From positions 1-39,579 of the forward strand of contig CAIZKT010000170.1 in assembly GCA_903933565.1 (NCBI GenBank): DNA of 39,579 nucleotides. The letters run 5' to 3'. Position 1 is the stretch's first letter; every line of letters starts with the position of its first letter. This document shows positions 3,545 through 39,289 of the stretch, in pieces. The stretch comes from an uncultured Victivallales bacterium. GTDB lineage: Bacteria; Verrucomicrobiota; Lentisphaeria; Oligosphaerales; JAFGRS01. A program made the position numbers and the translations under genes. The notes beneath the pieces are model-generated. The model was not told where the DNA came from. It saw only the letters and a program-made list of their open reading frames with translations, and searched no databases.

Positions 3545-3611
3545 CAGGTCACTCGGTCGACTCGAAACTTGGCGGTTTTCAGATAGGACGAATCCTGCCG
3601 CAACGCGAAAA

Positions 3612-3660
3612 TCAGTTGTCAGTGATCAGTTGTCAGTGATCAGTTGCCCGTAGTCAGTTG
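3612..3660. repeat. Four TCAGTTG heptamers at exact 14-bp phasing (first two units are a perfect 14-bp tandem ATCAGTTGTCAGTG)
   Basis: TCAGTTG starts at 3612, 3626, 3640 and 3654. The sequence is atcagttgtcagtg atcagttgtcagtg atcagttgcccgtag tcagttgg. It is intergenic, about 390-440 bp upstream of the amidase start codon. Confidence 0.7.
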
Positions 3661-10853: not shown

Positions 10854-10961
10854 GTCACGACCTCCTTGGACGGTTCGAGAAGGGCTTCCGTCCTGCCCTC
10901 CCGTCACGATTCACCCGTCACGATTCACGCCCCGAATCCGAGCCCTTGTCTCTCGCCGCGC

Positions 10962-20069: not shown

Positions 20070-20097
20070 TGCCTAGTTAAGTTACATTAGATAGTGG

Positions 20098-25720: not shown

Positions 25721-26767
25721 CTACGGCGCCGTCGGCGGCTTGGGCACGTCGGCCTCGGTCGGGGTCAGGCCGAGAAGCTGGAACAGGCACCCGGCCAGCT
25801 TCGGCTTCTCCGTCCAGTACACGTTCATCTTCAGTTCGCCCTGCGCATCGAAGAACAGCGCGTACGGTTTGAATGGGACTTTCAGGAGCATGCTCAACTG
25901 GTTGGTCGGGTCGGCAAGGACGGTGCCACTGAGCTTGTTCTGCGTGGCAAAGGTGTGGACCTCGGCGTCGGTGCCGATGACGATGTAGACCAGATGCACC
26001 CGATCCTTGAGCCGGGGCCAGGTGAGCAGCTCCTCCGTGGCCGCGGCCATCTCCGGGCAGCGCTGGCTGCGCGGTGAACAGAAGACCAGCACCAGGGGCT
26101 TGTCCCCTAATGCGGTTGAATCGAAGTCGTTTCCGTTAAGGTCTTTGGACTTGAGCGGTGGCAGCTTGGCACCGGGCGTCAGGATCTTCTGCTCCAGATT
26201 GACCGTGTACCCCTTAGGCGGTCCGGCGGGCGGCTTCATGGTCTGGGTGCCGGCGGCGGCGGCGACACTGCTCATCAGGATGAGGACGGCCTGCTGAACC
26301 TGCTGCGGGTCCTTGCCGCGCAGGAAGCTGAGCAGCGGCTCGATATCCACCACCTGCTCGCCGACGCGCCACTCGCGCAGCGGCACCAGGTCCACCACCT
26401 GGCCGCGGGCGTCGTAGCAGACCAGGTACTCGACCTGGCTGCCGAGCCCTTCGGGCAGGATCGACTTGACGTGGCTGACCATACCCAGGCTGCGCTCGCC
26501 GCTGAGCAAGGCAAAATTCCGCACCTCGAATCCGGACGCGTGCATGCGCACGTCGGCCTTGAACTCGAGCCGGAACGGTCCCGGCGCCGTCTTTGCCTCG
26601 GGGAACAGCCGCAGGGCCTGGTCGAGCATGCCGGGCTCGGCCGTCAGGTTCTGACCGCGCGCGGCGAGGGGAAGGATCAGGAGCAACAGTGCCAGCCCCA
26701 GGCGCGTCCCCACTGTTGTTCTCGGTCCGACGTCCCGGTAACCTTGGTCTGGCATCGGTCGCTTCAC
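25721..26767 (-). CDS. Secreted two-domain protein with C-terminal TlpA/ResA-like thioredoxin fold carrying an atypical C-X6-C
   Basis: GTG start preceded by GAGGAGGAG with a 6-nt spacer. The signal peptide is GTRLGLALLLLILPLAARGQ. The C-terminal layout is SKDLNGNDFDSTALGDKPLVLVFCSPRSQRCPEMAAATEEL ... VHLVYIVIGTD ... VLADPTNQL ... KPYALFFDAQGEL. This is the TlpA-like order, but FCSPRSQRCPEM replaces the canonical WCxxC. Confidence 0.7.
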   Translation of the reverse strand: MKRPMPDQGYRDVGPRTTVGTRLGLALLLLILPLAARGQNLTAEPGMLDQALRLFPEAKTAPGPFRLEFKADVRMHASGFEVRNFALLSGERSLGMVSHVKSILPEGLGSQVEYLVCYDARGQVVDLVPLREWRVGEQVVDIEPLLSFLRGKDPQQVQQAVLILMSSVAAAAGTQTMKPPAGPPKGYTVNLEQKILTPGAKLPPLKSKDLNGNDFDSTALGDKPLVLVFCSPRSQRCPEMAAATEELLTWPRLKDRVHLVYIVIGTDAEVHTFATQNKLSGTVLADPTNQLSMLLKVPFKPYALFFDAQGELKMNVYWTEKPKLAGCLFQLLGLTPTEADVPKPPTAP

Positions 26768-26937: not shown

Positions 26938-27591
26938 TCAGCGCGGATGAGGGGCTTCCGGGTCGTTGTTCTGTCCCTCCCGGTCGACCAGTCCGGGCGC
27001 CGGGAGGACGGTACGGATCGTCACGGTTCGGTCGAGCCCACGGCGGCTGAATGTCACCCCGAGATCCACGGCGAACCAGGGTTCCGTCGTCGGCTGCGCC
27101 ACGGTAGCTTCCCAGCGGAAGCGGTCGAATTCCTTGCCAAAAACGCCGGCACGCTTGCCTGGGGCCAGGCGCGCGTCTTTCTCGAGGTCGAGCATGACGG
27201 TGCGCGCCAGCAGGGCAGCCTGAGTGTAGTCTTCGGCCGTGCCGGTGTTGCGCAGACAGAGACCGAATCCGTCAAGCAGCACCACCAGCAACACCGCGCC
27301 CACCGCCGCGGCTACCAGCACCTCGAGCAGTGTGAACGCAACCGCGCGCCGGTCCCCCGGCGTTACCCCGCCAGGACGGCGCGGGATTGGCGATGCGCGG
27401 TGGCGGTGTCGGCGCCCAGCCGGAAGATCAGCCCAGACTTCAGCCGGGTCCAGGTGACGCCCAACGGGCGCGGCAGCCCCCGGCCCGGACGAGCCAGGGG
27501 CGGATACCGAATACCGAGTGACGGACGCTGAATAGCGAAGCGGCGGGGGGCTGGGGCTCTCGGACGAGGACCTTGGACATTCGGCAATCAT
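26938..27591 (-). CDS. GspI-like minor pseudopilin with an unusually long (85-aa) N-terminal leader
   Basis: Prepilin-type motif AFTLLEVLVAAAVGAVLLVVLL, then a GspI-like body (EDYTQAALLARTVMLDLE ... FRWEATV ... VDLGVTFS ... TVTIRTVL). ATG 27591 overlaps the upstream stop as ATGA. I found no in-frame ATG/GTG/TTG between 27591 and the Phe codon at 27334-27336. Confidence 0.7.
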   Translation of the reverse strand: MIAECPRSSSESPSPPPLRYSASVTRYSVSAPGSSGPGAAAPVGRHLDPAEVWADLPAGRRHRHRASPIPRRPGGVTPGDRRAVAFTLLEVLVAAAVGAVLLVVLLDGFGLCLRNTGTAEDYTQAALLARTVMLDLEKDARLAPGKRAGVFGKEFDRFRWEATVAQPTTEPWFAVDLGVTFSRRGLDRTVTIRTVLPAPGLVDREGQNNDPEAPHPR

Positions 27592-28079
27592 CGCGGTTTG
27601 ATCCGGGCCAGGCTGCCGCCGGCGGCGATCTCGATGTGCTGTTGCGCGCCGGTGTCATCGCTCAACACGAACAACAGTTCGTCCATGCCGCCCCACGGGG
27701 CGACGTCCCAGGCGACCTCAACGCCAGGGGTCAATTCCTGGCGATTGCGCACCACGCGCACCAGGCTGACGCCCGGCGGCAGTACCCACCGTCCGAGGCG
27801 CCCCTCGATCGGCTCAAGCACGACCGGGGCTGCGGGCGGCGACGCGATCTTCGCGACCCGCAGGCTGCGCCTGTCGGCGCTCAGAATTAGGCGGCACTCG
27901 GCGCCAGTGCTCGCCGCCAGGTCGCGGGTGGCGTTATGCACGATCATCACCTGTCGCGCGCTCTGCGCCAGGCGCAGGCTGCGGTAGAACTCGCCCAACC
28001 GCGGGGTACTGATGGCCAGCACGACGCTGACCATGCAGACCACCACCATCAGTTCGAGAAACGTGAACTGTTTTGTCAT
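27588..28079 (-). CDS. GspH/FimT-like minor pseudopilin
   Basis: MTKQFTFLELMVVVCMVSVVLAISTPRLGEFYRSLRLAQSARQVMIVHNATRDLA. ATG 28079 overlaps the gspF stop as ATGA. The track's 344-aa version (to 28622) is an out-of-context N-terminal extension lying over gspF. Confidence 0.75.
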   Translation of the reverse strand: MTKQFTFLELMVVVCMVSVVLAISTPRLGEFYRSLRLAQSARQVMIVHNATRDLAASTGAECRLILSADRRSLRVAKIASPPAAPVVLEPIEGRLGRWVLPPGVSLVRVVRNRQELTPGVEVAWDVAPWGGMDELLFVLSDDTGAQQHIEIAAGGSLARIKPR

Positions 28080-29347
28080 CGCACCGCCGTCGACATCTGA
28101 AAGATCGGCAAGAGCATCGCCATGATCACAAAACCGACCAACACTCCCATCACCAGGATCATGGCTGGTTCCAGCAGGGTCGTCAGCGTCCGGATGCGCA
28201 GGTCCGCTTCGCGCCGGTAGTATTGGCCGCAGTTTTCGAGCATCTCGGGGAGATTGCCGCTCTGCTCGCCGGCCCCGGCCATGCTTACTGCCAGCGCGGG
28301 GAAGAAGAACGGATAGCGCCGCAGCGCAACGGAGAGCGCCGCGCCCGCCTGGACGTCCTGTCGTATGCGTTCCAGCGCCGCGCTCAATCCCTTGTTGCCG
28401 GCCACTTCGCTCGCCGCTCCCAGGGCCGGGACCATGGGTACGCCGTTGCGCAGCAGCATGCCGAGGGTGAGCGCGAATCGCGTCAGGGCCAGTTCCCGTG
28501 CCAGCACCCCAAGCAGCGGCAAGCGGAAGAGGAGACGATCCCACCGCCGCTGGCCGGCCGCCGAGTGCAGCGTTCCCCAGCCCAGCGACGCCACGACGGC
28601 GACCCCGGTCAGCCAGGCCCACCAGCCATGCACCAACCAGCGGCTGCCAGTCAGCAGCACCCGCGTGGGCAGCGGCAGGGCGGCGCCCATCTCTGCAAAG
28701 ACGCCCGAGAAACGGGGCACGACAAAGGTCAGCAGCACGACGATCGACAGGATCATGACCGCAAACATGATGGCCGGATAGGTCATGGCGCCCTTGAGAC
28801 GGTCGCGCAGTTCCGCGTCCTTCTCGAGGCTTTCGCCGATGCGGGTCAGGGTCGGGGCCAGGGCGCTGGCGACTTCGCCGGCCCGGACGGTGTGCCGGTA
28901 GAGTTGGCTGAAGTGCTGCGGATACGCATCGAGCGCGCTGGACAGCGGCTGGCCCTCGCGCACCTGCCGGGCCAAGTCGCTCAGAAGCTGGCCGAGCTCG
29001 AGGGTGCCTGCCTGGTCGGCCAGCACGGTCAACGCCTTGTCCACCGTCAGCTCTGCCCGCAGCAGGGCTGCAAACTGGAGCGTGGCGTGGGTGATATCGC
29101 GGCGGCAGACGCCGCGCCGCGAGCCGGTCCGTGCCGCCAGCGCGGCTGCCGCCCGTAGCCGCAGCGGCGCCAGGTGTTGCAGTCGGAGCGCAGCCATGGC
29201 CTCGGCATCCGAGCCGGCCGCCAGCTCGCCCTCGACAACCTGGCCGGATGCGTTGACCGCCTTGTATGAGTATCCGCCCACAGGCACAACCCCCTCTGGC
29301 TCCCCGGAGCGCCGGGTCCGGTCGGGAACGCGCTTGACCACGGCCAC
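28076..29347 (-). CDS. gspF: Type II secretion / type IV pilus inner-membrane platform protein GspF/PilC family
   Basis: Duplicated T2SSF architecture. It has the GspF N-terminus pattern YSYKAVNASGQVVEGELAAGSDAEAMAALRLQHLAPL, three hydrophobic segments, and the ending ILVMGVLVGFVIMAMLLPIFQMS. It starts immediately after the gspE stop. Confidence 0.9.
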   Translation of the reverse strand: MAVVKRVPDRTRRSGEPEGVVPVGGYSYKAVNASGQVVEGELAAGSDAEAMAALRLQHLAPLRLRAAAALAARTGSRRGVCRRDITHATLQFAALLRAELTVDKALTVLADQAGTLELGQLLSDLARQVREGQPLSSALDAYPQHFSQLYRHTVRAGEVASALAPTLTRIGESLEKDAELRDRLKGAMTYPAIMFAVMILSIVVLLTFVVPRFSGVFAEMGAALPLPTRVLLTGSRWLVHGWWAWLTGVAVVASLGWGTLHSAAGQRRWDRLLFRLPLLGVLARELALTRFALTLGMLLRNGVPMVPALGAASEVAGNKGLSAALERIRQDVQAGAALSVALRRYPFFFPALAVSMAGAGEQSGNLPEMLENCGQYYRREADLRIRTLTTLLEPAMILVMGVLVGFVIMAMLLPIFQMSTAVR

Positions 29348-31024
29348 TCAGAGCTGGGTTACCCGCAGCACCTCCGCGGCCGTGGTCAACCCCTGCCGGA
29401 CTTTGTCTGCCCCGTCCTTCAGCATGGTAGCCATGCCCTGTTGGCAGGCCAGCTCGCGCAGTTGGTTGAGGGCCGTCTGAGCGCAGAGCAGCGGCCGTAT
29501 GGCCTCAGTGATTTCGAACAGCTCATAGACCCCGAGGCGGCCGCTGAACCCGGCGCCGTGACATTCGTCGCAACCGACGCCCACCTGGACTGAGGTCGGC
29601 AGCGGTTCCCCGACGGCCTCGAACAGCAGACGCTCCGTTTCGGCCGGGGCGCGGGACGTCTGGCAATAGGAGCAGATCCGGCGCACCAGCCGCTGGGAGA
29701 GCACCGCGTTGAGTGAGGCCGCCAGCAGATACGTGGGGATGCCCATGTCCGTCAGTCGAGTCAGGGCACTCACCGCGTCGTTGGTGTGCAAGGTTGAGAA
29801 GACCAGGTGTCCGGTCAGGGCGGCGCGGATGGCGATTTCCGCCGTCTCGGTGTCGCGGACCTCACCCACCATGGCGATGTCCGGGTCCATCCGCAGAATG
29901 CTGCGTAACCCGACCGAAAACGTGAGCCCGACCTGGGGGTTGACATGGATCTGCAGCACGCCTGCAAGGTGATACTCGACCGGGTCTTCGATGGTGATGA
30001 TTTTGATCTGCTGGGACTTGATGCTGGCCAGGGCCGCGTAGAGCGTGGTGGTCTTGCCGCTGCCCGTAGGGCCCGTCACGAGAACCAGGCCGTAAGGCCG
30101 TGCGATCTGTCGCCGGAACGCCGCCAGCACCGCGTCTGGGAACCCGAGGCGGGCCAGATCGAGATTGAGACTGCCCTCATCGAGGATCCGCAGGACCACA
30201 CCCTCGCCGTGCAACGCCGGGACGGTCGCGATGCGCACGTCGTAGGGCCGGTCCATCAGGCGCAGGCCGATGCGGCCGTCGAGCGGCAGGCGGTGCTCGG
30301 CGATGTTCAGACCGGCCATGATCTTCAGGCGCGAAACCAGTGCCGGGTACGTCGCCGCCGGCACGCGGGCCACCTCGTGCAGGACCCCGTCCACGCGGTT
30401 GCGGACCACGGCTTCGGTCTCGCCCGGCTCGAGATGAATGTCGCTGGCACCTTCGGCTACGGCCTGCATCAGCAGGAGATTGACCTGCTTGATGACCGGC
30501 GCTTCGTTGGCCAGCTCGGCCAGGGAGCGGTCGTCGCGGGCGGCGGCTCCCGTGGGCTGTGTCTCAACGCCGCCGGGCACGGTCTCGCCGCTGGCGCTCT
30601 GCTTGCACCACTCTCGGGCCCGCTCCATCTTGGCGCGGCTGACAAGCACCGGCCGCACCAGCCATCCGGTTACCTGCCGACAGCGGTCGAGCGATTCGAC
30701 GGCCTCGAGGTCGACGACGGCCACGAGCACGCGCTCACCCTCCCGCTTCAGGGGCAGGAACTCCTGGCTGTCGCGTAAGTCCGGGGGCAACGCTCGCCAG
30801 CACTCAGGGTCGAGGCCCTTGACCCCGTCCAGATCGAGCCATTCGACGCCGTACTCCGCTGCGACCGCGGGGAGCAGAGCATCCTCGCGGATGTGCCCGC
30901 CTTGCAGGAGGGCATCGAGGAGCGTGCGGTCGCCGCTCACCGCCAGGGCTTCGAGCTCGCGCAGGCGTTTGCCGTCGAGCCAGCCCTTGGCAAGGATCAG
31001 TTCTTTGAGTGTTTCGCGGTGCAT
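29348..31024 (-). CDS. gspE: Type II secretion ATPase GspE/PilB family
   Basis: Walker A is GPTGSGKTTTLYA. The Asp box/Walker B region is IITIEDPVEY ... MVGEVRD. The His box is GHLVFSTLHTN. The tetracysteine motif is CSYCQ ... CDECHGAG. There is an N-terminal T2SSE_N-like domain. Confidence 0.95.
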   Translation of the reverse strand: MHRETLKELILAKGWLDGKRLRELEALAVSGDRTLLDALLQGGHIREDALLPAVAAEYGVEWLDLDGVKGLDPECWRALPPDLRDSQEFLPLKREGERVLVAVVDLEAVESLDRCRQVTGWLVRPVLVSRAKMERAREWCKQSASGETVPGGVETQPTGAAARDDRSLAELANEAPVIKQVNLLLMQAVAEGASDIHLEPGETEAVVRNRVDGVLHEVARVPAATYPALVSRLKIMAGLNIAEHRLPLDGRIGLRLMDRPYDVRIATVPALHGEGVVLRILDEGSLNLDLARLGFPDAVLAAFRRQIARPYGLVLVTGPTGSGKTTTLYAALASIKSQQIKIITIEDPVEYHLAGVLQIHVNPQVGLTFSVGLRSILRMDPDIAMVGEVRDTETAEIAIRAALTGHLVFSTLHTNDAVSALTRLTDMGIPTYLLAASLNAVLSQRLVRRICSYCQTSRAPAETERLLFEAVGEPLPTSVQVGVGCDECHGAGFSGRLGVYELFEITEAIRPLLCAQTALNQLRELACQQGMATMLKDGADKVRQGLTTAAEVLRVTQL

Positions 31025-31056
31025 GTTCGATCTACGTCAGCACGATTACGTCCGGG

Positions 31057-31497
31057 CTACTCGAGAGCCCGCCAGATGGACTCCGGCACCTGCCGCGGCG
31101 CGCGCACGCCGACCACCGGCCGGTACTTGACCTCGCAACCTTCCTGATATTTCTCCAGTTGCCCCTGCCGCGCCAAGGCACGGACCAGCACCGGCAGATC
31201 GTCCACTGTCTGCAACTCTGGCAACCTGGCCATCTCGACGAGAGTCAGGCCCGGATGCCGCAACAGGACGAGGTAGACCTGGCGCAGATCATCAGACAGA
31301 TCGATGGCCGCCAGCAGTCCGCCCGTCGCTGCCGGTGGGCGGGTATAAGCAGCGGCGTCCGGCACCGGCGCGGGCGGTGGCGGCGGCGCCGCCGTTCCCG
31401 GCGCAGCCTCGGCCGCCTGCAGGTGCCGGATGACGTCGTCCAAGCGCACGCGCAAGGCCTGCAGTTCCGCTACCAGATGGGTGCGTTCTTCCGTCAC
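31057..31497 (-). CDS. Coiled-coil / Pro-rich linker / winged-helix (MarR-like) protein, unknown function
   Basis: The preferred start is GTG 31497, 4 nt after the ParA-like stop. The track start at 31587 would overlap that gene by 86 nt. Parts: N-terminal helix TEERTHLVAELQALRVRLDDVIRHLQAAE; linker AAPPPPPAPVPDAA; wHTH-like LRQVYLVLLRHPGLTLVEMARLPELQTVDDLPVLVRALARQGQLEKYQEG.EVKYR. Confidence 0.6.
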   Translation of the reverse strand: MTEERTHLVAELQALRVRLDDVIRHLQAAEAAPGTAAPPPPPAPVPDAAAYTRPPAATGGLLAAIDLSDDLRQVYLVLLRHPGLTLVEMARLPELQTVDDLPVLVRALARQGQLEKYQEGCEVKYRPVVGVRAPRQVPESIWRALE

Positions 31498-31501
31498 GGT
31501 A

Positions 31502-32254
31502 TTACTCTGCTTGCAGCGCGGCCACCACGTGGAGGAGCTCCTGGGCCCAGGGCTCGCGCGGCGACACGCGCAGACACAGGTCCGCACTTCCCAGTTCGAG
31601 CAATTTCGGGCTCAGGGGCAGCACTCCGACGACCGGACAGCCGAAGACCTCTTCGGCCTGGCGTCGCACCTGGGCCGGATCGTGGGCCGCCGAAACTTTG
31701 TTGATCACCAGCAACAGGCGGCGAGCCCGCAAGCGCCGCGCCACCTCGACGGTGACGCTTGTGCCCTGGAAATCCTGTTGATCGGGCCGCAACACCACCA
31801 GCACCAGGTCGGCGACGGCAATGGACAGAAGCGTCTCCTCATTCAGCCCCGGGTGCGTATCGATGAGCAGGTGCTGCAACTCCAATTTCGTCAGCAGCTC
31901 GCGGAACCCCTGGTTGAGGCGGCCGACGTCGTATCCCTGTTTGAGGACTTGCGCAATGTCGCTCATGTTCATGCTGCTGGGGATCAGGAACAGGCGTTGC
32001 GGGGGCAGCCCGACAGCGGCCGATACGTCTCGGGCCACGGCCTCGATGGGGGCCCGGCCCCAGAGGAAGTCGTTGAGGGTCTGAGCGGCCGGTGGCTGAC
32101 CCCCCAGCAGCACATGGATGCCCGGCGACTGGATGTCGGTATCAATCACGCCGACGCGGCGGCCAGCGCCAGCCAGGGCATAGCCGAGGTTTGCGGTGAT
32201 GTTCGATTTGCCGGTGCCGCCACGGAACGAGTGTATAGCAATGATCTTACTCAT
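31502..32254 (-). CDS. ParA/MinD-family P-loop ATPase embedded in the secretion operon
   Basis: MSKIIAIHSFRGGTGKSNITANLGYALAGAGRRVGVIDTDIQSPG carries a deviant Walker A with Arg in place of the signature Lys. Walker B-like is LLIDTHPG. The ATG overlaps the gspD stop by 8 nt. Confidence 0.85.
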   Translation of the reverse strand: MSKIIAIHSFRGGTGKSNITANLGYALAGAGRRVGVIDTDIQSPGIHVLLGGQPPAAQTLNDFLWGRAPIEAVARDVSAAVGLPPQRLFLIPSSMNMSDIAQVLKQGYDVGRLNQGFRELLTKLELQHLLIDTHPGLNEETLLSIAVADLVLVVLRPDQQDFQGTSVTVEVARRLRARRLLLVINKVSAAHDPAQVRRQAEEVFGCPVVGVLPLSPKLLELGSADLCLRVSPREPWAQELLHVVAALQAE

Positions 32255-33920
32255 GGTCCTGCGCCTGCTCCGACTTTAGCGCCTCGATGTGCTTGGCCCT
32301 CGCGGCCTCCTCTTGGGTCAACCGCGTGCCCTCGTCACTGGTGGCCACCACGTACGGAGTGATGAATACCAAGAGCTCGGTCCGTTCCTTCCGCCGATTT
32401 TGGCTGCCCAGCAGCCAACCCAGCCCGGGGATACGGGACAGGTACGGGATGCCGGTCTGGTCACTCCGCGAGGTCGCCCCGATCAGACCGCCGATCACCA
32501 GCGTGTCGCCGTCCTTGACGATGACGCTGGTCTGGGCTTCGCGCTTGCCGATCAGCGGCGCGCGGACGTTGCCCGGGAACTCGATTTCAGAAAGGACGCT
32601 GGTGATCAGCATCGTTATGTCCAGGGCGACATCGCGGTCGACGTTAATGCGCGGCGTCACCTCCAGATTGATACCCACATCCTTGTAGACAAAATCGCTG
32701 ACCGTCTTGCCCGCGCCAGCCTCCTGGCCGAGGTCTGTAACCGACTTCAGAATCGGCTGCTCCTGGCCGACCGTGATCTTGGCCTTCTGGTTGTCGGTGG
32801 TGAGCAGCCGCGGACAAGAAAGGATAGTGATCTTGCCATCGGTGGCCAAGGCATGGATCAGGCCTTCGAAGTTCTCCCGCGTCAAGGTGACGGCAAGCGA
32901 CGGATCGGTCAGCGAGCGGCCCGCGGCAACCTTGATCACGGTCTTGTTGCCGCTGGCAAGGTACTTGGTGATCGCGGTCGAGAAGCCTGTAGTCTCGGTG
33001 AAGGAGGCCTCGACGATGCGGGCCTCGATGAGCACCTGCAGGCGTCGGACGTCAAGACTCTCGATGGTCTGCAGGATGTCCGTATGCAACGCCGGGCTGG
33101 CCGTAACGATTATGGAGTTGGCCGCCTCAACCGGCGTCAACCTGACGTCGCCCGTCGCCCCGCCCGGCGCCCCGCCTGCCGCCGTCTGCCCCGCCTGCCG
33201 TCCCGTGTACACCTTCTCGAGAGCGTCTCCGAGGTCCTTGGCCTTCATGTAGCGCACGGGGTAAACGACCGTAGTGGTGGCGGCTTCCTGGGCCGGTTTT
33301 TCCTTGTCAAGCAGGCCTGCCAGCAGCACCAGGCGGCGGATGTTGCTGGCTATGTCGGTCACCACCAGCGCGTTGGTGTTGTCGTTGGCGAACGAGTGCC
33401 CGCTGCTCGACACCAAGGGCCGCAAGGCCTCAAGAAGCTGCTTCGCCTCGACATGGACCACCGGCACAACCTGGGTGATGACGCGATCCTCGTCGGGGAT
33501 CGAGTCCACCTCGCTGCCGTAGCGGACCTCGACGGGCTTCTGCACCGCGTCGGTCTTCTTGACCACCTTCAGGAGCTTCTCGGTCCGGATCAGGGTAAGC
33601 CCGTGCGCGTCGAGCACCGCCTCCAACACCAGGAAGGCGTCGTCCATGCTCAGACTCTTCGGCGCGAAGACCGTCACTTTGGTCTTGACGTCGTCACCCA
33701 TCACCGTCACCAGCCCGTTGAGCTTACCCATCAGGTTGACGAACGATGCCAGCTCGACGTCGCGCAAGTCCAGGGTGAGCCGGCCGTCGGTGTCGGCACG
33801 GACGGGGACCGGTTCCGTCGGCGGAACCCCCGCTTCCTGAGCCCACGCCACGCCGACGCACGCCAGTAGGAGGTACGACCACGCCAAGAGGCAGCCAAGC
33901 TGATGCCATTGCGTACGCAT
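32247..33920 (-). CDS. gspD: Outer-membrane secretin GspD/PilQ family
   Basis: Signal peptide LGCLLAWSYLLLACVGVAWAQE. N0/N1-type repeats are present (VELASFVNLMGKLNGLVTVMGDDV ...). The C-terminal secretin domain reads ...VIVKDGDTLVIGGLI ... GIPYLSRIPGLGWLLGS ... ELLVFITPYVV. Confidence 0.9.
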   Translation of the reverse strand: MRTQWHQLGCLLAWSYLLLACVGVAWAQEAGVPPTEPVPVRADTDGRLTLDLRDVELASFVNLMGKLNGLVTVMGDDVKTKVTVFAPKSLSMDDAFLVLEAVLDAHGLTLIRTEKLLKVVKKTDAVQKPVEVRYGSEVDSIPDEDRVITQVVPVVHVEAKQLLEALRPLVSSSGHSFANDNTNALVVTDIASNIRRLVLLAGLLDKEKPAQEAATTTVVYPVRYMKAKDLGDALEKVYTGRQAGQTAAGGAPGGATGDVRLTPVEAANSIIVTASPALHTDILQTIESLDVRRLQVLIEARIVEASFTETTGFSTAITKYLASGNKTVIKVAAGRSLTDPSLAVTLTRENFEGLIHALATDGKITILSCPRLLTTDNQKAKITVGQEQPILKSVTDLGQEAGAGKTVSDFVYKDVGINLEVTPRINVDRDVALDITMLITSVLSEIEFPGNVRAPLIGKREAQTSVIVKDGDTLVIGGLIGATSRSDQTGIPYLSRIPGLGWLLGSQNRRKERTELLVFITPYVVATSDEGTRLTQEEAARAKHIEALKSEQAQDHE

Positions 33921-33995
33921 GTCTGTGCTCTAGCCCTTTCGCCGCCCTTGCCGACCTCGCCTCGAGACCGCCGCCGCGGGGGCCACGGCGGACCA

Positions 33996-35285
33996 TCATA
34001 GCAGCGTCAGGGTCAGGTCCAGTGTCTGCCGCTGACGCTGCACCCGGATCGCCACGGTCGTACTCGGGCGCAAGCCCCGCAGTACCTCCATGACCTCCCC
34101 GACTGAGCCGACCCTGACCCCGCCGACCTCCCGGATCACGTCGTCGATCAGGACCAGGGCATCCGGCCGCGATACCCCGGTCACCAGCAGAGCGCCGCCG
34201 CCTTCACCGAAGCGGGCCTGCGCTTCCTCGGCGGTGAGTTGTCTCAGGGACAGCCCCAAGCGTGCCGGCGCCACCGGCGCGGCTGACGTCTCGCCGCGCT
34301 CCGGACCCGTCGCCGACGCGGTCGCGGTGGTGGTACCCAGAGCGAGGGGCGGTACGGTGGTCTGGGGCAGAACCAGCCGGGCTGTCTGCCCGCCGCCCCG
34401 AGCCTGGAACGTAACTCCGCCTGCGTCCACGGTATGCACTATCCACTCGCGGTACAACTCACCCCGCGAGAGCAAGAGGTCCGCCTTGCCGTCGCCGTCC
34501 GCCAGCACGGCCACCTGCTGTCCGGCGATCTCAGCGACACCCCGTAGGACCAGGGTACCAAGCGTCGGGTCGGCTGGTTGCTCTGGCGGCGGCGGCACGG
34601 GGGCGGGCGGCGGCGCCGCCGACGGTGCCGCCACAAGGTCGGTTTCAGCCTGGGGGAGCGTCTTCGGTTGCTTGGGCTGGAACAGGTCGTCGGCCAAGGC
34701 AAGGGGCGACTCCGCAGCCGCGGCAGTCGCCCCCCCCAGACGCACGATGGATTCCTGGGGCAGCAAGTCAGCCCGTAGGTGGAACCGGGGTGGGCCGTCC
34801 GCGGTCTCGCCGCGGGATACCGTCACCTCGGTGACTGCCATGCCCTGCAGTTCCCAGAGCAGGCGGTCGAAAGCCTCGATCGTGGCGTGCCCCTCGAGCA
34901 CGAAGCTGTCGATCACCTGGGTGGTGCCATCTGCAAGCAACCGGGGCATGGGGCGCAGGTTACTCACCTCGACGTTGGCCGCAGCCGCGGCCTTGCCCAT
35001 GGCCTTGAGAACATCCGCGAGCGCGGCGCCGACGCCCGGCAGACGCAGCCCGGTGTGCCACACGGCCACCCGCTGCAGGAGCCGCTCATGGTCTTCTCGC
35101 CAACTGCGCAGTTCGCGCAGCTTCTGTTCCTGTTTCCAGACTTCCTTGCGCCGTGCTTGCACCGTCTGCGCGCTCCGCCGCACCTTGGCCTGGAGCGGGT
35201 CGAGATAGCCCACATAGGACCCGGCGCCCACGAGGAACACCGCGAGGGCAATCACGAAACGTCGGTCGCGCGGGCTCAGTTTCAC
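33996..35285 (-). CDS. Fusion protein: PilO/GspM-like N-terminus + PilP/GspC-HR-like domain + C-terminal PDZ domain
   Basis: TM plus coiled coil is RRFVIALAVFLVGAGSYVGYLDPLQAKVRRSAQTVQARRKEVWKQEQKL. A ferredoxin-like PilO/GspM body follows. The Pro-rich linker is APPPAPVPPPPEQP. The HR/PilP-like part is LVLRGVAEIAGQQVAVLADGDGKADLLLSRGELYREWIVHTVDAGGVTF. The PDZ-like part is GGGALLVTGVSRPDALVLIDDVIREVGGVRVGSVGEVMEVLRGLRPSTTVAIRVQR. The GTG start overlaps the upstream stop as GTGA. Confidence 0.7.
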   Translation of the reverse strand: MKLSPRDRRFVIALAVFLVGAGSYVGYLDPLQAKVRRSAQTVQARRKEVWKQEQKLRELRSWREDHERLLQRVAVWHTGLRLPGVGAALADVLKAMGKAAAAANVEVSNLRPMPRLLADGTTQVIDSFVLEGHATIEAFDRLLWELQGMAVTEVTVSRGETADGPPRFHLRADLLPQESIVRLGGATAAAAESPLALADDLFQPKQPKTLPQAETDLVAAPSAAPPPAPVPPPPEQPADPTLGTLVLRGVAEIAGQQVAVLADGDGKADLLLSRGELYREWIVHTVDAGGVTFQARGGGQTARLVLPQTTVPPLALGTTTATASATGPERGETSAAPVAPARLGLSLRQLTAEEAQARFGEGGGALLVTGVSRPDALVLIDDVIREVGGVRVGSVGEVMEVLRGLRPSTTVAIRVQRQRQTLDLTLTLL

Positions 35286-36622
35286 GGCCTCTCCGTTGCG
35301 GGAGCCGCAGCTCCCGGACCGTCGGTTCCGTCGGCCCGCAGGCGGAAGCTCAACTGGAACTCCACACCTTCGCGGCGGGCTTCACTGAGGATCAACGCGA
35401 CGTCGGTCAGGCGAGCGCTGCTGCTCAGGGCTTGGACATAGTCGGTCACGCGCTCGTAGTCCGGGCTTCTCCCACTCGCCAGCAGGACGCCGCTGAGCCG
35501 ACCCGAGAACACGGTCAGATACACCGCGGGTGGCCGGGCTGCTTCGAGGACCGCGAGGATCTCGTGCCAGCGGCGCGGGCTCTCGATCCCGACGCCGGCC
35601 GTTGCGGCCAGTTCTGTCATGGCCGTGACGTCGCTCGTCAGGTCGCTCAGTTCGCGGTACCGCGGCGCGAGGGCATGCAGGCGGCCATCCAGGGCCGCGC
35701 ACTGGTTCTGGTTCTGGCGCCATTCGCCTTCGTAGTAGAGAGCCATCGCCAAGGGCCACAGAGGCAAGCTCCACAGCAGTCCCCGACGCAGCGCCCCACG
35801 CAGGTGCCCGGCACGCGGGCGCAGGTCCCAGCGCCGGAATCGGCGACCGCGCGCATGAAAGGCCGCCAGGCCCGCCAGGACCCATCCTGAGCCAGGCTCA
35901 ACCCCGGCGTCGCCTAGGTCCAAGCATTCCTCGGGTGCGATCCAGTGGACGTCGCCAAACAGCTCTGGCGTCAGTCGCGCCGCCACCTCCGGGAGCGCGG
36001 ACGAGAAAATCAGCGTGCGGTCAGGCCGCAACGGGCGTCGTTCCTCGCGCAGATAGACCGCCTGACAGGCGAGACGCAGGTCACGCACCAGGTCGGCAGC
36101 GTCGGCGGCGTCACCGCGCGGCCCCTGAGGCAGCGGGATCTCTCGCATGAGCACGATCTCGGCGCCGGCCATCATCACCGTCAAGACCCGTCTCTCGTCC
36201 AGGCACACGAGCAGCGTGTTCCTGTCGCTGGCGAGGGACTCGCGCAGGAGCATCAGACCAACCAGGGCGAGCGGCTCCGGAACGACACACTTCACGCCGC
36301 CCGCCACGGTCGACGTGGTGGCCAGGAGCAGTAGGCGGATGCCGCGTTCGCCTTCAGCCACTTGCCAACGCACCGTGGCCGGATCGACATTGGGCAGGTG
36401 GAAACCGGCCTGCAAACGTATGGCCTCGCGCAGCTCCCCCGGCTCCATGGGCGGCAGCGAGAGGTCCTTGAGGATCACCTCAGTCAACGGCAGCCCCACC
36501 ACGGTCAGTCGCGCTCGGGCGCCAGCCGCTTCCGGCACGGTACGCACGCGAACAGATCGTCCCGCCGTGACCGCCTCTGCGGCGAGGAGCGAACCGTTGC
36601 GGTTGATGGCCACCAGCGACAA
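35282..36622 (-). CDS. Fusion-type assembly-platform protein: PilM/GspL-like cytoplasmic (actin-fold) domain + TM + PilN/GspL-like periplasmic part
   Basis: The N-terminus LTVVGLPLTEVILKDLSLPPMEPGELREAIRLQAGFHLP is PilM-like. The central TM is LLWSLPLWPLAMALYYEG. It is followed by a coiled-coil/ferredoxin-like tail. The position matches gspL/pilMN in such operons. The start is TTG 36622, with an alternative GTG at 36613. Confidence 0.65.
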   Translation of the reverse strand: MSLVAINRNGSLLAAEAVTAGRSVRVRTVPEAAGARARLTVVGLPLTEVILKDLSLPPMEPGELREAIRLQAGFHLPNVDPATVRWQVAEGERGIRLLLLATTSTVAGGVKCVVPEPLALVGLMLLRESLASDRNTLLVCLDERRVLTVMMAGAEIVLMREIPLPQGPRGDAADAADLVRDLRLACQAVYLREERRPLRPDRTLIFSSALPEVAARLTPELFGDVHWIAPEECLDLGDAGVEPGSGWVLAGLAAFHARGRRFRRWDLRPRAGHLRGALRRGLLWSLPLWPLAMALYYEGEWRQNQNQCAALDGRLHALAPRYRELSDLTSDVTAMTELAATAGVGIESPRRWHEILAVLEAARPPAVYLTVFSGRLSGVLLASGRSPDYERVTDYVQALSSSARLTDVALILSEARREGVEFQLSFRLRADGTDGPGAAAPATERP

Positions 36623-36626
36623 CGCG

Positions 36627-37532
36627 TCAACCCCCTTCCATCCACAGCACTGTCAGGCCGGCTTTCGAGACCTTCACGACACCTTCGAGTTGACGTTGGA
36701 CGCCACCGGCTGCGCCTGTCGCCCGGATGCGGAAGTACTCCGGCGTCACCTTTACCCAATCGGCCAGGGCCTGGAAGACCGCCGGGGTCACGCCCGGTAT
36801 GTGTTGCAGATCCTCGACCCGCGTGAACGTTCGGCCGCTGTCGAGATACTGCCGGATCTCGCCCGCCAGTTGCGCGTCGACACCCGGCAGAACGCGCAGG
36901 ACTTCAGCCGGGCACTCATTGATGGCGACGCGTCCGCGGTGGTACGGCGTTACGAGTGCGGCCAGCCCCGGCGTTTTGTCCTGACCGTAGTAGCAGGCGC
37001 CGTCCATGCCTTCGACTTGCCACAGTTCCTCCAACACTCGCACGCCGCCAGCGGTTGCGCGCTGGCGCAGGAAACTGGCGACGGCTTCCGCCTGCGTGGG
37101 CGAGACCGTCGGCAGTCGGCCCAGGCTGACGGCGTTCAGGCGCGACAGCGGCGCCTTGGCGTCTTCAACGGCGACCTCGCACCAGCATGGGGCGACGCCC
37201 GGCTCCGGCGGCTTCTCTGTCGGCTTTGCCGACCAGTCTGCGGGCTCGACGGTCCACGTGCCGATGCTCTCGTTGCGGCGGCCGTTTGGGGCTGTGTCCA
37301 GCCCCTGTTCCGCCCGTGATCGGAGCGCGGCGGCCACACGCCAGAAGCCGGCGCGGGCCAGACCCGCTGCGTCCATCTCGCGCGTGGCGTAGCCGGCGGC
37401 CTTGAGATTGCTACTGACTCGCATCGAGACGGTAAGCAGCAGCAGCGTCAGAACGGCCGTTACCCACAGGGTCAGCAACAGGGCGTACCCGGCTTCACGT
37501 CCGCGGCGTTTTCTCGCGCAGATCTTTGTCAT
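36627..37532 (-). CDS. gspK: GspK-like minor pseudopilin with C-terminal helix-hairpin-helix repeats
   Basis: The preferred ATG at 37532 gives MTKICARKRRGREAGYALLLTLWVTAVLTLLLLTVS, the GspK N-terminus pattern RG.ALl.vLw....L. HhH motifs are NECPAEVLRVLPGVDAQLAGEI and VEDLQHIPGVTPAVFQALADWV. The track's 449-aa version is an upstream extension over the preceding gene. Confidence 0.75.
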   Translation of the reverse strand: MTKICARKRRGREAGYALLLTLWVTAVLTLLLLTVSMRVSSNLKAAGYATREMDAAGLARAGFWRVAAALRSRAEQGLDTAPNGRRNESIGTWTVEPADWSAKPTEKPPEPGVAPCWCEVAVEDAKAPLSRLNAVSLGRLPTVSPTQAEAVASFLRQRATAGGVRVLEELWQVEGMDGACYYGQDKTPGLAALVTPYHRGRVAINECPAEVLRVLPGVDAQLAGEIRQYLDSGRTFTRVEDLQHIPGVTPAVFQALADWVKVTPEYFRIRATGAAGGVQRQLEGVVKVSKAGLTVLWMEGG

Positions 37533-38115
37533 CGCTGTTGTCTTTGCGAATGGCCGCCATCGCCAGGCGGAACACGGTACACAGCGGCAGGGCGTCGGGT
37601 CCGGCACCGACCGTACCGTTGACGCGTACGGCTTCGGGTATACCGTCGCGTGCGGCGTCGTGTTCCGCCACCCATTGGCCTCGCCACAAGTACTCGAAGC
37701 GGACCTCGCACGCTTCACCGAGAAGCACGGTCGTCTGCGGGTTCTGGACCGCCACGCCCGATACTGGCTTCTCACAGCGGACCAACTGCCCCGCCTGCCA
37801 CTGGTAAGTGACCCAGCACGGGGGCGCCAAGGGCCGGGCGCTGCGGACCAGGAACGTAAAACCATCGGCAGCGCAACGGCAACCAGGCAGCGCCACCGGC
37901 ACCATTCGGGCCATGTCGCCTTCCAGGATGTGCATTCCCCCGCGGGCGTGCGCCAAGAGTGCGCCGCGCTCTTCACCGATCCGGTAGGCTTGCAGGCCGC
38001 TGTGGAACGCCGCTACCAGCGCCGTCGTGATCAGTCCCAGCACAGTCACCGCCACCAGGACCTCCAGCAGAGTAAAGCAGCGGGACCGCGGCCGTCTACC
38101 AGTTGCCGATGTCAT
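37495..38115 (-). CDS. GspJ-like minor pseudopilin
   Basis: The preferred ATG at 38115 gives MTSATGRRPRSRCFTLLEVLVAVTVLGLITTALVAAFHSGLQAYRIGEE ... ILEGDMARMV. It overlaps the gspG 3' end by 20 nt. Confidence 0.7.
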   Translation of the reverse strand: MTSATGRRPRSRCFTLLEVLVAVTVLGLITTALVAAFHSGLQAYRIGEERGALLAHARGGMHILEGDMARMVPVALPGCRCAADGFTFLVRSARPLAPPCWVTYQWQAGQLVRCEKPVSGVAVQNPQTTVLLGEACEVRFEYLWRGQWVAEHDAARDGIPEAVRVNGTVGAGPDALPLCTVFRLAMAAIRKDNSDDKDLREKTPRT

Positions 38116-38512
38116 CCTGAGAGCCTTCCCGCCCGTCGGGACCGCACGAGAACAGGTCGTAGGAGCGCGGGTTACGTGTGCCTGGGCTCCTGTAGGCATA
38201 CTTCCCCCCCCATGCGTCCGTGGCGATCTCCTTCTGCAGATACGGCCCTTTCCAGCGCGGCGGCAGCGGCGGCTGAGTCGGCGCCTCGACCAGAGCCCGC
38301 AGTCCCTGGTCGGTCGTAGGGTAGCGGCCGCTGTCGAGTTCGTAGGCGTCCAGAGCCGTGGCCAGGATGCCGATCTGGTTCTGAGCCGCGCTCAGGCGCG
38401 CCTCTTCGGTTCGGCCCGTGAACTTGGGCAGGACGATCGCAGCCAGGACGCCGAGAATGATGACCACGACCATGATCTCGATGAAGGTGAACGGCCGCGG
38501 CTGTTGATTCAT
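38096..38512 (-). CDS. gspG: Major pseudopilin GspG
   Basis: The preferred ATG at 38512 is preceded by GGAGGGA with a spacer of about 9 nt. It gives MNQQPRPFTFIEIMVVVIILGVLAAIVLPKFTGRTEEARLSAAQNQIGILATALDAYELDSGRYPTTDQGLRALVE ... WKGPYL ... DAWGGKYAYRSPG ... YDLFSCGPDGREGSQDDIGNW. This is near-textbook GspG except for the -1 residue. Confidence 0.9.
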   Translation of the reverse strand: MNQQPRPFTFIEIMVVVIILGVLAAIVLPKFTGRTEEARLSAAQNQIGILATALDAYELDSGRYPTTDQGLRALVEAPTQPPLPPRWKGPYLQKEIATDAWGGKYAYRSPGTRNPRSYDLFSCGPDGREGSQDDIGNW

Positions 38513-38565
38513 GGCCTGTCTTCCCTCCATTGCAGCGGGATTAGTCACATAGCTCCACGAGTTCA

Positions 38566-38594
38566 CATATAGTACCCCACGCGCGCCGATGCAA
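38566..38594 (-). promoter_or_regulatory. Candidate sigma70-type promoter of the secretion operon
   Basis: On the minus strand: TTGCAT (38594-38589), 17 nt spacer, TATATG (38571-38566). This leaves a 5' UTR of about 45 nt before the gspG ATG. It is motif-level evidence only. Confidence 0.3.
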
Positions 38595-38737
38595 CACGAC
38601 TAGCCGGAAAAGAAAACCAGCCCTGACGAAAACGGCTGCTGAAGAGTGACGGGGGGCGGATGGTTGGGGTCAGCGGGTGCGACTGGGGCGCGAGGGAACG
38701 CCCCGTTGCCGCCTCAAGAGCGTGACCAAAATGGCCG

Positions 38738-39289
38738 GTGAGAGTGGCCCCACTGCGAGGCTGGCACGGGTTACCGGCGTTCTTCTTGCTTCCCCTCCGG
38801 GGGAGTCTTGATGCGGCTTTCCTGATTGGCGGGCTGTTCTTGGCGTGTTGTTCGGCTCTTCTTCCCCTGTGTATTGCGCGTGCCGCGTGTGCAGATTGGC
38901 AGGCATCCAAGCGGAGGATGTCTGTGTTGGCCACACTGCCGAAGCGCCCTTGCCGGGCGTGCGGTCTCGATTACGTACCGGACGCCCGCAACTCTTGTCA
39001 CCAGGACTGCTGTACGCGCAAGGTGTGCGTACGTCGCCGGAAGCGGGTACGCCAGCGTCTCTGGCACCGGGAGCGCTATGCGTCTGATGCGTCGTTCCGG
39101 GAGAAGGCCAAGTCGCGGGTGCGCCGGCACCGAAGGCGGGCTTCCCAGGCCCAGGCGCAAGGGCCTCCGACGAGCGCATCTGAAGGTCGCCTGCGGCATC
39201 TGGAACAGGCCTTTCCGGGGCTGGCCATGCAGATGGGCGAAGAGCCCGACGCGATAACAGGCGCGGGAACTGGTGTCGGCCTGGGCTGA
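38738..39289 (+). CDS. Hypothetical small Cys-rich, highly basic protein (possible zinc-ribbon); start uncertain
   Basis: From the internal ATG at 38918: MSVLATLPKRPCRACGLDYVPDARNSCHQDCCTRKVCVRRRKRVRQRLWHRERYASDASFREKAKSRVRRHRRR. This is a CxxC ... C ... CC ... C cluster followed by an Arg/Lys-rich helix-like region. The overlapping minus-strand ORFs look like junk. I recognise no family with certainty. Confidence 0.35.
   Translation: MRVAPLRGWHGLPAFFLLPLRGSLDAAFLIGGLFLACCSALLPLCIARAACADWQASKRRMSVLATLPKRPCRACGLDYVPDARNSCHQDCCTRKVCVRRRKRVRQRLWHRERYASDASFREKAKSRVRRHRRRASQAQAQGPPTSASEGRLRHLEQAFPGLAMQMGEEPDAITGAGTGVGLG

Follow-up and report, generated by a model that had tools for sequence, protein, structure and literature searches.

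A recurrent MinD-like ATPase and winged-helix protein pair beside gspE suggests an undescribed control module for a type II-like secretion machine

Two small genes within a secretion operon of an uncultured Victivallales bacterium are the subject of this study. The operon lies in a stretch of 39,579 nucleotides (contig CAIZKT010000170.1 of assembly GCA_903933565.1, positions 1 to 39,579 of the forward strand; hereafter the window) and encodes a machine that resembles a type II secretion system (T2SS). Between its secretin gene (gspD) and the gene of its secretion ATPase (gspE) stand one gene for a 250-aa P-loop ATPase of the MinD/FlhG kind and one for a 146-aa protein with a predicted winged-helix fold. 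Our analysis finds this pair immediately before gspE in at least nine distinct lineages (with 52-81% GspE identity to the window), and shows that a membrane sensor encoded 5 kb away ends in a tail motif which recurs in sensors near ATPases of the same family. The recurrent pair and the tail-bearing sensor together suggest an undescribed control module for a secretion machine. How a cell places, counts or switches on its type II secretion machines is, to our knowledge, hardly understood. If the suggestion is true, T2SS-like systems would gain a nucleotide-switch control layer, as flagella have in FlhG and cellulose synthase has in BcsQ-BcsR.

The secretin gene, the pair and gspE are all read from the minus strand. 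The secretin gene (32247-33920, TAA stop at 32249-32247) encodes a GspD-type protein with N0, Secretin_N and Secretin domains in Pfam, and its end overlaps the beginning of the ATPase gene (31502-32254, ATG at 32254-32252, TAA at 31504-31502) by 8 nt, ATGAGTAA. The ATPase stop is followed by the four nucleotides TACC and the GTG start of the small gene at 31497 (31057-31497, stop included at 31057), and a gap of 32 nt separates the end of the small gene from the gspE ATG at 31024. Direct reading of the sequence confirms these distances and the Walker A motif SFRGGTGKS, all reported in an earlier note on this DNA. An open reading frame (ORF) called mechanically for the small protein extends up to a GTG at 31587; homologues favour 31497 as the start, which is backed by a database gene call of 146 aa (P0001) and by a second database protein (P0002) starting at the equivalent codon. 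The overlap, the two short gaps and the lack of any internal promoter or terminator match speak for a unit tied to the secretion genes; on the minus strand from 28100 to 36000 no sigma-70-like promoter or terminator-like site was found. The composition of the pair (GC 0.65-0.69, GC3 0.80) matches that of the flanking operon genes, and this match, together with the conservation of the pair in distant loci, speaks against a recent insertion.

Loci for comparison (numbered L, with database proteins numbered P) were sought from both sides, by homologues of the ATPase and by homologues of the small protein; a search with a 7-sequence alignment of the latter yielded 1 genome locus and 4 metagenome loci. 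Besides the window, the pair stands directly before gspE in L001/2, L005, L006/15, L009-11, L012-14, L018, L019 and L030/31, and gspE invariably follows it in the related T2SS-like loci recovered, wherever the contig continues. The gene order of L001/2, with a GspE 81% identical, is that of the window. The operon of L005 (P0008) likewise runs as in the window from the pseudopilins over PilM/N, a PDZ protein and the secretin to the ATPase, and continues with two sensor genes between the ATPase and the small protein, then GspE and GspF. A giant gene opens the series in L006-8 (P0010), followed by small protein, ATPase, GspE, GspF and pilins, and also in L030/31 (P0031, labelled Desulfuromonas sp.), there followed by ATPase, small protein, GspE, GspF and pilins. 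The ATPase gene adjoins the small gene throughout L009-11, L012-14 and L016-19; in L020 the small gene abuts gspE and only 60 nt of upstream sequence are available, too short to show an ATPase. The order of the two genes is lineage-dependent, ATPase first in some and small protein first in others, both upstream of gspE. Among the small-protein loci with enough flanking sequence, the ATPase is adjacent, within two genes or fused in 12 of 12. A natural fusion is given by P0180, a protein of 380 aa in which an ATPase domain (Walker A QHGTGKS) is joined to a match of the small-protein profile at residues 265-379; its model reached pLDDT 86 and pTM 0.75, from an alignment whose small-protein rows were partly misaligned. 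The order flips between lineages and the natural fusion both point to a functional pair.

The earlier note had regarded the pair as an integral part of the operon and not as a passenger. This view is supported by the related loci recovered, every one of which has both genes before gspE, and by the matching composition; the pair is present in the related operons recovered, contrary to the absence that the note would have taken as a sign of recent insertion. The description of the pair as an insert between secretin and gspE holds for the window itself. Across loci, however, the conserved neighbour is gspE and not the secretin, in place of which a giant gene precedes the pair in several of them.

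The ATPase combines the Walker A motif SFRGGTGKS, with an Arg at the position of the signature Lys, with a DTD switch I motif and the Walker B motif LLIDTHPG. Its Pfam matches above cut-offs are CbiA (9.8e-17), AAA_31 (2.7e-16) and ParA (1.5e-14), and it has the features of the ParA/MinD superfamily (SIMIBI, deviant Walker A) with the exception of the signature Lys (KGGxGK[ST]). The cut-off of no curated NCBIfam family model is reached. The best match is archaeal-type MinD (TIGR01969, 82.9 bits against a cut-off of 201.75), and the scores for ParA partition (NF041546, 58.8 against 180), bacterial MinD (TIGR01968, 48.7 against 212.9), BcsQ (TIGR03371, 45.7 against 157.85) and CpaE_hom_Actino (23.3 against 154.45) fall equally short, as do those for MrpORP (43.8 against 450) and ApbC (38.7 against 348), in both of which only the first ~50 residues align; the RepA models lie far below cut-off. 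Several identities could be rejected accordingly. MinD in the strict sense does not fit, as its models are not reached and the C-terminus is unconserved and ends ~20 residues before the MinD membrane-targeting sequence would; neither minC nor minE is found in the window. An Fe-S carrier of the Mrp/ApbC/NBP35 kind is rejected on the equivalog models. TadZ/CpaE is rejected because the protein has only 250 aa, without the N-terminal domain, and the surrounding genes are of Gsp type. BcsQ, whose model is far from its cut-off, shares the Arg substitution alone, and there are no bcs genes. For a partition ParA the models are not reached and Soj, ParA and McdA rank structurally below MinD, FlhG and FleN. 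A defence-system reading was also discarded, as PADLOC returned only weak P-loop matches for the ATPase and left the small protein unmatched.

By sequence, the solved structures closest to the ATPase are Aquifex MinD (4v03, E 4.8e-18) and archaeal MinDs, followed by FleN. A fold search with the model of the family fusion places archaeal MinD 1hyq first (TM-score 0.89), then MinD, FlhG and FleN; Soj, McdA and BcsQ come further down. As judged from sequence and predicted fold, the ATPase is nearest to MinD, FlhG and FleN and not to the DNA-binding ParA/Soj, so that the label "ParA-like" of the earlier note needs correction. Nor does it reach the cut-offs of the MinD and Mrp models, grouping with such a housekeeping family being the outcome which the note had named as speaking against its idea.

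The family to which the ATPase belongs is large: over 8000 clusters of the database match with E <= 1e-3. Identity to the window ATPase is 52-83% among the top 120 homologues, which derive from Cyanobacteria, Chloroflexi, Planctomycetota and a Desulfuromonas-labelled metagenome-assembled genome; further members occur in Deinococcus, Rhizobium and others. The Walker A motif is exactly RGGTGKS in 119 of these 120 homologues, and DTDIQSPGIH (switch I), IDTHPGLNEETLLS (Walker B) and LRPDQQDFQGT are near-invariant. The catalytic residues, i.e. the P-loop Lys, the DTD motif and the Walker B motif, are kept across the family; a C-terminal amphipathic or membrane-targeting helix is not conserved in it. 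The isoelectric point (pI) of the window protein is 7.0. The earlier note had pointed to the Arg in Walker A as a change that may alter ATP hydrolysis. The Arg is indeed present, but its near-universal occurrence rules out a local degeneration of Walker A and makes it a hallmark of a large and so far uncharacterised family of MinD-like proteins rather than a lesion. There is a precedent in BcsQ, where the Arg at the signature-Lys position (R10) is flipped off ATP and held by D150, in a protein with neither the cis P-loop Lys nor the catalytic Asp (PMC7840130).

Members of the family also end a recurring gene cluster, seen in L033 (a plasmid of Deinococcus sp. KNUC1210), L038 (Nostoc sp. NIES-3756) and L039 (Streptomyces sp. 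NBC_01014). The order is AGE epimerase, STAS, GlgX, STAS/anti-sigma antagonist, an optional anti-sigma factor, an optional SpoIIE phosphatase (missing from L038) and the MinD/ParA gene. This cluster links the ATPase family to partner-switching signalling and glycogen metabolism.

The AlphaFold2 model of the small protein (7-sequence alignment, mean pLDDT 70) begins with a helix at residues 3-30, which a disordered Pro-rich linker (31-66) connects to a domain of three helices and a beta-hairpin (69-127); a last helix spans 139-145. The N-terminal helix is of heptad type with clean 3-4 hydrophobic spacing. The segments of the winged helix (H69-80, H86-90, H101-110, hairpin 114-127) have pLDDT values of 83-88, and the three-helix bundle with its hairpin wing identifies the domain, at the level of prediction, as a winged helix. 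The Foldseek matches listed from the PDB are all winged-helix proteins, namely MarR, ArsR/SmtB, BlaI/MecI, TrmBL2 and AspA, with a probability of ~1 but E values of only ~1e-2; the same fold appears in the model of the ATPase-small-protein fusion. Pfam, NCBIfam and PADLOC gave no match for the small protein, and sub-threshold Pfam matches to MarR, TrmB and Penicillinase_R turn up in distant family members only. The coiled-coil winged-helix assignment of the earlier note thus stands at the level of predicted fold. Word-indexed searches gave only 2 and then 7 relatives of the small protein, and an exhaustive profile search of 1.8 billion representatives was needed to arrive at 94 with E <= 1e-3, 35 of them with E <= 1e-10.

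Conserved across this small family are a peptide leading into helix 1, GG(L/I)LxxxDLSDxLRxVYL (GGLLxxIDLSDxLRxVYL in the window protein), an LxRQGYLE motif at the end of helix 3, the residues K-Y-R in the wing, a Lys/Arg run and a terminal (D/S)IWxAL helix, with which the basic tail ends. Almost every member has an acidic winged-helix core (mean net charge -2.7, pI ~4.5-5.2, and -10 in P0154), which favours a protein-binding role. The segment in the position of the recognition helix is largely hydrophobic and preceded by an acidic run, as read from the alignment by eye. The charge pattern of the small protein leans towards protein binding over DNA binding. From the earlier note's "small DNA-binding adaptor" the fold is retained as a prediction, and DNA binding is unproven in the face of this core and recognition-helix segment.

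These features bear directly on the first alternative, a transcriptional module, in which the winged-helix protein would regulate the genes of the secretion machine and of a giant protein encoded nearby, and the ATPase would modulate it as FleN antagonises FleQ, or sequester and release it under control of the sensor. We regard this scenario as rather unlikely, though worth serious attention. The predicted fold is like that of the DNA-binding winged helices MarR, ArsR, BlaI, TrmB and AspA, distant members show the weak Pfam matches mentioned above, basic residues are conserved in helix 3 (RQG), the wing (K-Y-R) and the tail, and the heptad helix could dimerise the protein. FleN, moreover, is one of the solved structures nearest to the ATPase, and the occurrence of the pair outside secretion loci (L024, L033, P0180) would fit a general regulatory output. 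The acidity of the core and the hydrophobic character of the presumed recognition helix argue the other way, as does the fact that the window protein matches no curated helix-turn-helix family. The pair also keeps a fixed place right before gspE instead of lying at an operon boundary or in divergent orientation. Finally, no palindrome is common to the two candidate promoter regions: repeats at 38500-38950 and 19990-20120 are short and probably due to chance, and none is found in both, a comparison that makes for a weak test.

A second alternative is strict ParA-type positioning relative to the nucleoid or a pole, as favoured in the earlier note. Here the ATP-bound ATPase would sit non-specifically on the nucleoid, and the small protein would tether the machine to it and stimulate hydrolysis, with the result that machines are spaced or localised. 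We consider this highly improbable. An ATPase with a small partner that has disorder and a basic peptide does resemble type Ib partition and McdAB-like systems, and the ParA_partition model gives a match of 58.8 bits, albeit below threshold. Both sequence and predicted fold, however, rank MinD, FlhG and FleN ahead of Soj, ParA and McdA, the pI of the ATPase is neutral and the partner is acidic. As a matter of general knowledge, secretin-anchored machines that span the envelope are not an obvious diffusing cargo, and the association with a membrane sensor described below points to the membrane instead of the nucleoid as reference. With a MinD/FlhG/FleN-like ATPase of pI 7.0, nucleoid-referenced positioning is left without specific support.

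The earlier note had overlooked a third partner, a sensor whose tail motif, by alignment, is common to sensors near ATPases of this family. In the window the sensor is a protein of 881 aa encoded on the plus strand (22981-25626), with transmembrane segments, a large periplasmic region and HAMP (593-639) and GAF (665-828) domains in Pfam. Its C-terminal tail carries the motif LRIKIDELKRDQDVEAITESDYF (25510-25578, plus strand), which ends 15 aa before the stop. Alignment with sensors of other loci yields the consensus L..KIV.LEIKIDE.K+...V.EITE(T/S)DYF..L...A..L+, in short form LxIKIDE...EITE[ST]DYF, within a common tail of ~45 aa that follows HAMP or GAF. The motif has no counterpart in Pfam or the PDB. 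Sensors with this motif occur near family ATPases in the window, L003, L005, L009-11, L017, L021 and L030/31; in the latter it is detected with a hidden Markov model (HMM) of the motif in a gene of 319 aa right after the pilins. A regular-expression scan found one occurrence per matched locus, 13-27 residues before the stop (30 in L033). The genes inserted into the L005 pair encode membrane sensors without an output domain that end with HAMP and a short coiled coil, and similar output-less sensors follow the ATPase in L003 (P0007, two genes), abut the small gene in L017, open the operon in L009-11 and precede the second ATPase in L021.

The association extends to cultured organisms. In Nostoc punctiforme PCC 73102 the motif is carried by NPUN_RS35445 (annotated as "cache and HAMP domain-containing protein") on plasmid pNPUN02, directly upstream of the MinD/ParA gene NPUN_RS35450, and the motif HMM also detects it near a family ATPase in Nostoc sp. 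UHCC 0926. A motif-bearing ORF abuts the start of the ATPase gene in Rhizobium jaguaris. All three components are found in Deinococcus sp. KNUC1210 (L033), where the ATPase gene is followed by genes for a 116-aa homologue of the small protein (HMM 7e-7) and then a 341-aa transmembrane protein ending in the motif. After this trio lies a second, divergent ParA-like gene (8389-9156 of L033, plus strand), whose product, annotated as hypothetical, shares 35% identity with the window ATPase. The motif HMM found nothing further in any fetched locus or in the window, and no motif lies near the ATPase in L024, L026, L028 and L036-39. A recent precedent for signalling without an output domain comes from Cache-HAMP receptors, which can pass their signal to a partner protein with its own gene in the operon (bioRxiv 10.64898/2026.05.25.727664).

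A gap of 51 nt separates the sensor gene from a preceding gene for a 943-aa protein (20098-22929, plus strand) with an N-terminal signal-like segment, an acidic C-terminus and no Pfam match. A 43%-identical fragment at the end of L005 indicates that it belongs to the conserved neighbourhood.

We tentatively propose, at somewhat less than even confidence, that the pair and the sensor form a nucleotide-switch module which controls the secretion ATPase or the platform of the machine. What the analysis shows is genomic linkage, motif conservation and fold assignments; how the components touch, which way the signal runs and what it does to secretion are inferred from these. The MinD/FlhG-type ATPase would dimerise on ATP, and the small protein would be its cognate partner or adaptor, which we expect to contact it either with the conserved peptide ahead of the winged-helix domain or with its basic tail and terminal helix. 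Comparable binding to an ATPase is seen in MinE, in BcsR and in the tails of ParB and ParG. Since the ATPase family has no conserved C-terminal amphipathic or membrane helix, a partner would be needed for tethering to the membrane or the machine, and the HAMP-GAF sensor is the likely source of the input, recruiting or regulating the ATPase at the membrane. The output would be when, where or how many complexes of GspE, GspF and the GspL-like protein assemble or fire, a likely role by analogy with TadZ/CpaE of Tad pili, FlhG/FleN of flagella and BcsQ-BcsR of cellulose synthase.

Several findings weigh against such a module. Every locus came to light by way of the ATPase or the small protein, so that the presence of the pair in all related operons is subject to ascertainment bias, and operons of the clade without the pair would escape detection. 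The pair also occurs in the absence of any secretion genes, in L033, P0180 and L024 (P0016), the last with ATPase and small protein followed by an FG-GAP protein; its molecular output hence need not be GspE. ATPases of the family stand alone or with unrelated neighbours in the SpoIIE/STAS/GlgX clusters, beside CHAT proteins and in loci of Chloroflexi and cyanobacteria (P0054 from a Dehalococcoidia member and P0120 from a cyanobacterium are lone ATPases), which means that the family is not specific to T2SS. The Arg and Lys residues conserved in helix 3 and the wing of the small protein could allow DNA binding. The tail motif, finally, was missed in some loci, among them L024 and, as far as their flanks are visible, L006 and L012.

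A third alternative is a general housekeeping or signalling ATPase of a widespread family without a dedicated role in secretion, which happens to be co-transcribed here with its partner. The sheer breadth of the family, from Cyanobacteria, Chloroflexi and Planctomycetota to Deinococcus, Rhizobium and others, and the frequent lack of secretion genes nearby are in line with this explanation. It nevertheless appears very unlikely to us, as the place next to gspE is kept where GspE is only 52-58% identical and in both gene orders, the translational coupling is tight, and a rough neighbour-joining tree groups the T2SS-linked ATPases in a single subclade that also holds P0007 and P0016.

The proposed control module can be compared with several known systems. 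The closest setting is that of TadZ/CpaE, likewise a ParA/MinD-superfamily ATPase with an atypical Walker A in a type IV filament gene cluster, which is thought to act as a hub for localising and recruiting the secretion ATPase (PMC6668835). In the survey of type IV filament systems by Denise et al. (2019), TadZ of Tad pili is the ParA/MinD-type component described, with a profile that matched archaeal but no other bacterial components of these systems (PMC6668835); among the bacterial systems only Tad pili are thus described with an organiser of this type, and such an ATPase is no standard T2SS part, as the earlier note had supposed. TadZ differs in having an N-terminal receiver-like domain, whereas the window protein is a bare domain of 250 aa, and the window machine is T2SS-like (GspD N0, GspG, GspE/F) and not Tad; its locus adds a dedicated winged-helix partner and a sensor with the tail motif. 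BcsQ-BcsR of E. coli offers a further parallel, with a MinD-type SIMIBI ATPase that has an Arg in the signature position and a small partner in the operon of an envelope machine. Both proteins are essential for assembly and function of the cellulose secretion system, and BcsR binds at a MinE/Get1-type interface (PMC7840130). In contrast to BcsQ, the window family keeps GKS and DTD, and BcsR is a 7-kDa helical peptide instead of a winged helix.

FlhG/FleN is similar in that a MinD-like ATPase controls how many copies of an envelope machine are made and where, and is coupled to a transcription factor. FlhG, however, has a C-terminal amphipathic membrane helix of which none is conserved in the window family; the window locus has no flagellar genes, and the partner is unrelated to FleQ or FliM. 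MinD/MinE provides the best match in sequence and fold and a deviant Walker A dimer switch with a small activator, but the window ATPase has Arg for Lys, no conserved membrane-targeting sequence and no accompanying minC or minE. The type Ib ParA systems (ParF/ParG and the archaeal AspA-ParB-ParA) share the combination of a small ATPase with a small partner bearing a flexible basic peptide, and AspA is a winged-helix protein and one of the fold matches of the small protein; here the ATPase lies outside the ParA/Soj branch, the partner is acidic and the pair belongs to a chromosomal secretion operon, not to a replicon partition locus. On the side of the sensor, a Cache_heme-HAMP receptor with a Ser/Thr kinase shows the same arrangement of a receptor ending soon after HAMP and a partner in the same operon (bioRxiv 10.64898/2026.05.25.727664), with a kinase in place of the MinD-like ATPase and without the specific receptor tail of ~45 aa. 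In the literature no description was found of the pair, the RGGTGKS family, the sensor tail or a ParA/MinD component in a T2SS.

A SIMIBI ATPase acting as a switch on an envelope machine is thus a known principle; the triad of sensor, ATPase and adaptor may itself turn out to be a broader undescribed signalling pathway. The ATPase family resembles a general-purpose signalling switch with partners of different kinds, and the core of sensor and ATPase is also present in cultured Nostoc, Deinococcus and Rhizobium. More speculatively, and with somewhat less confidence than we place in the control module as such, the window may be one instance of a widespread pathway of sensor, RGG-type ATPase and acidic winged-helix adaptor that is here wired into a T2SS-like machine. 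The ATPase would dock on the conserved tail of the sensor, which has no conventional enzymatic output domain, and would in this lineage control when or where a giant lectin/crystallin-repeat protein is exported. The present findings offer a first functional handle on a group of more than 8000 clusters annotated as "MinD/ParA family protein", and the sensor tail that marks the partners belongs to it. The cultured carriers make the idea testable, in particular N. punctiforme (NPUN_RS35445/35450 on pNPUN02) and Deinococcus sp. KNUC1210 (MF271_RS20455-20470).

The giant protein has 3035 aa with beta/gamma-crystallin and I36 repeats in Pfam (10962-20069, minus strand). In L006/L015, L012, L017 and L030 the pair and gspE are directly preceded by homologues with 27-39% identity in tblastn, some of which carry ricin-lectin and crystallin domains. 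The giant protein is thus a candidate cargo or adhesin of the T2SS-like system.

The host operon encodes the components expected of a T2SS and is a T2SS-like type IV filament system. The gene following the pair encodes a GspE/PilB-type ATPase with an MshEN N-domain (29348-31024, minus strand; Pfam T2SSE 8e-131 and MshEN), which scores 553 bits for gspE in NCBIfam against a cut-off of 630 and 542 bits for pilB, also just under cut-off; GspD reaches 346.6 bits against 351.35. It is on account of these scores just below the equivalog cut-offs that the system is best called T2SS-like. The platform protein GspF (28076-29347, minus strand; T2SSF 1e-61) follows gspE, and two more pseudopilin-like genes (26938-28079, minus strand; ORFs with prepilin-like FTLLE motifs) come after it, the first with an ATG (28079) that overlaps the gspF stop as ATGA; counterparts in other loci carry N_methyl matches. 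Upstream of the secretin lie two inner-membrane assembly genes, one for a protein with a GspM N-terminus and a PDZ domain (33996-35285, minus strand; T2SSM and PDZ_2) and one for a PilM/PilN-type, GspL-like protein (35282-36622, minus strand; PilN), with synteny kept in L005 and L009. The head of the operon is formed by GspG/J/K-type pseudopilin genes (36627-38566, minus strand, as ORF bounds; true starts probably internal), with tblastn matches to genes of L005 and L009 called T2SSG, T2SSJ and HHH_3. A prepilin peptidase was not seen within the window, and Rfam and tRNA scans of the window gave no match, and in particular none to a c-di-GMP riboswitch upstream of the operon.

The architecture of the assembly platform is unusual: a GspM-like N-terminus is joined to a C-terminal PDZ domain (GspC-like) in one protein and a PilM-like region to PilN (GspL-like) in a second, the two ORFs overlapping by 4 nt. 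At 19130-20753 (plus strand) L030 encodes an AAA ATPase of the ExeA/GspA kind that has a peptidoglycan-binding domain, and a GspB-like gene comes next; for neither was a counterpart seen in the window.

Two further minus-strand genes of the window have counterparts in the same relative places downstream of the L005 pseudopilins, an AhpC/TSA-like redoxin of 348 aa (25721-26767; L005 counterpart 38% identical) and a 261-aa protein of unknown function (10122-10907; 30% identical), showing that the conserved locus exceeds the Gsp genes. The first 3600 nucleotides of the window contain no ORF of at least 150 aa and gave no Rfam or tRNA matches, and their GC content is 0.58 against ~0.67 elsewhere. 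Positions 1-160 and 247-406 form a 160-nt direct repeat with 81% identity, and a 14-nt tandem repeat of 2.6 copies lies at 3611-3646.

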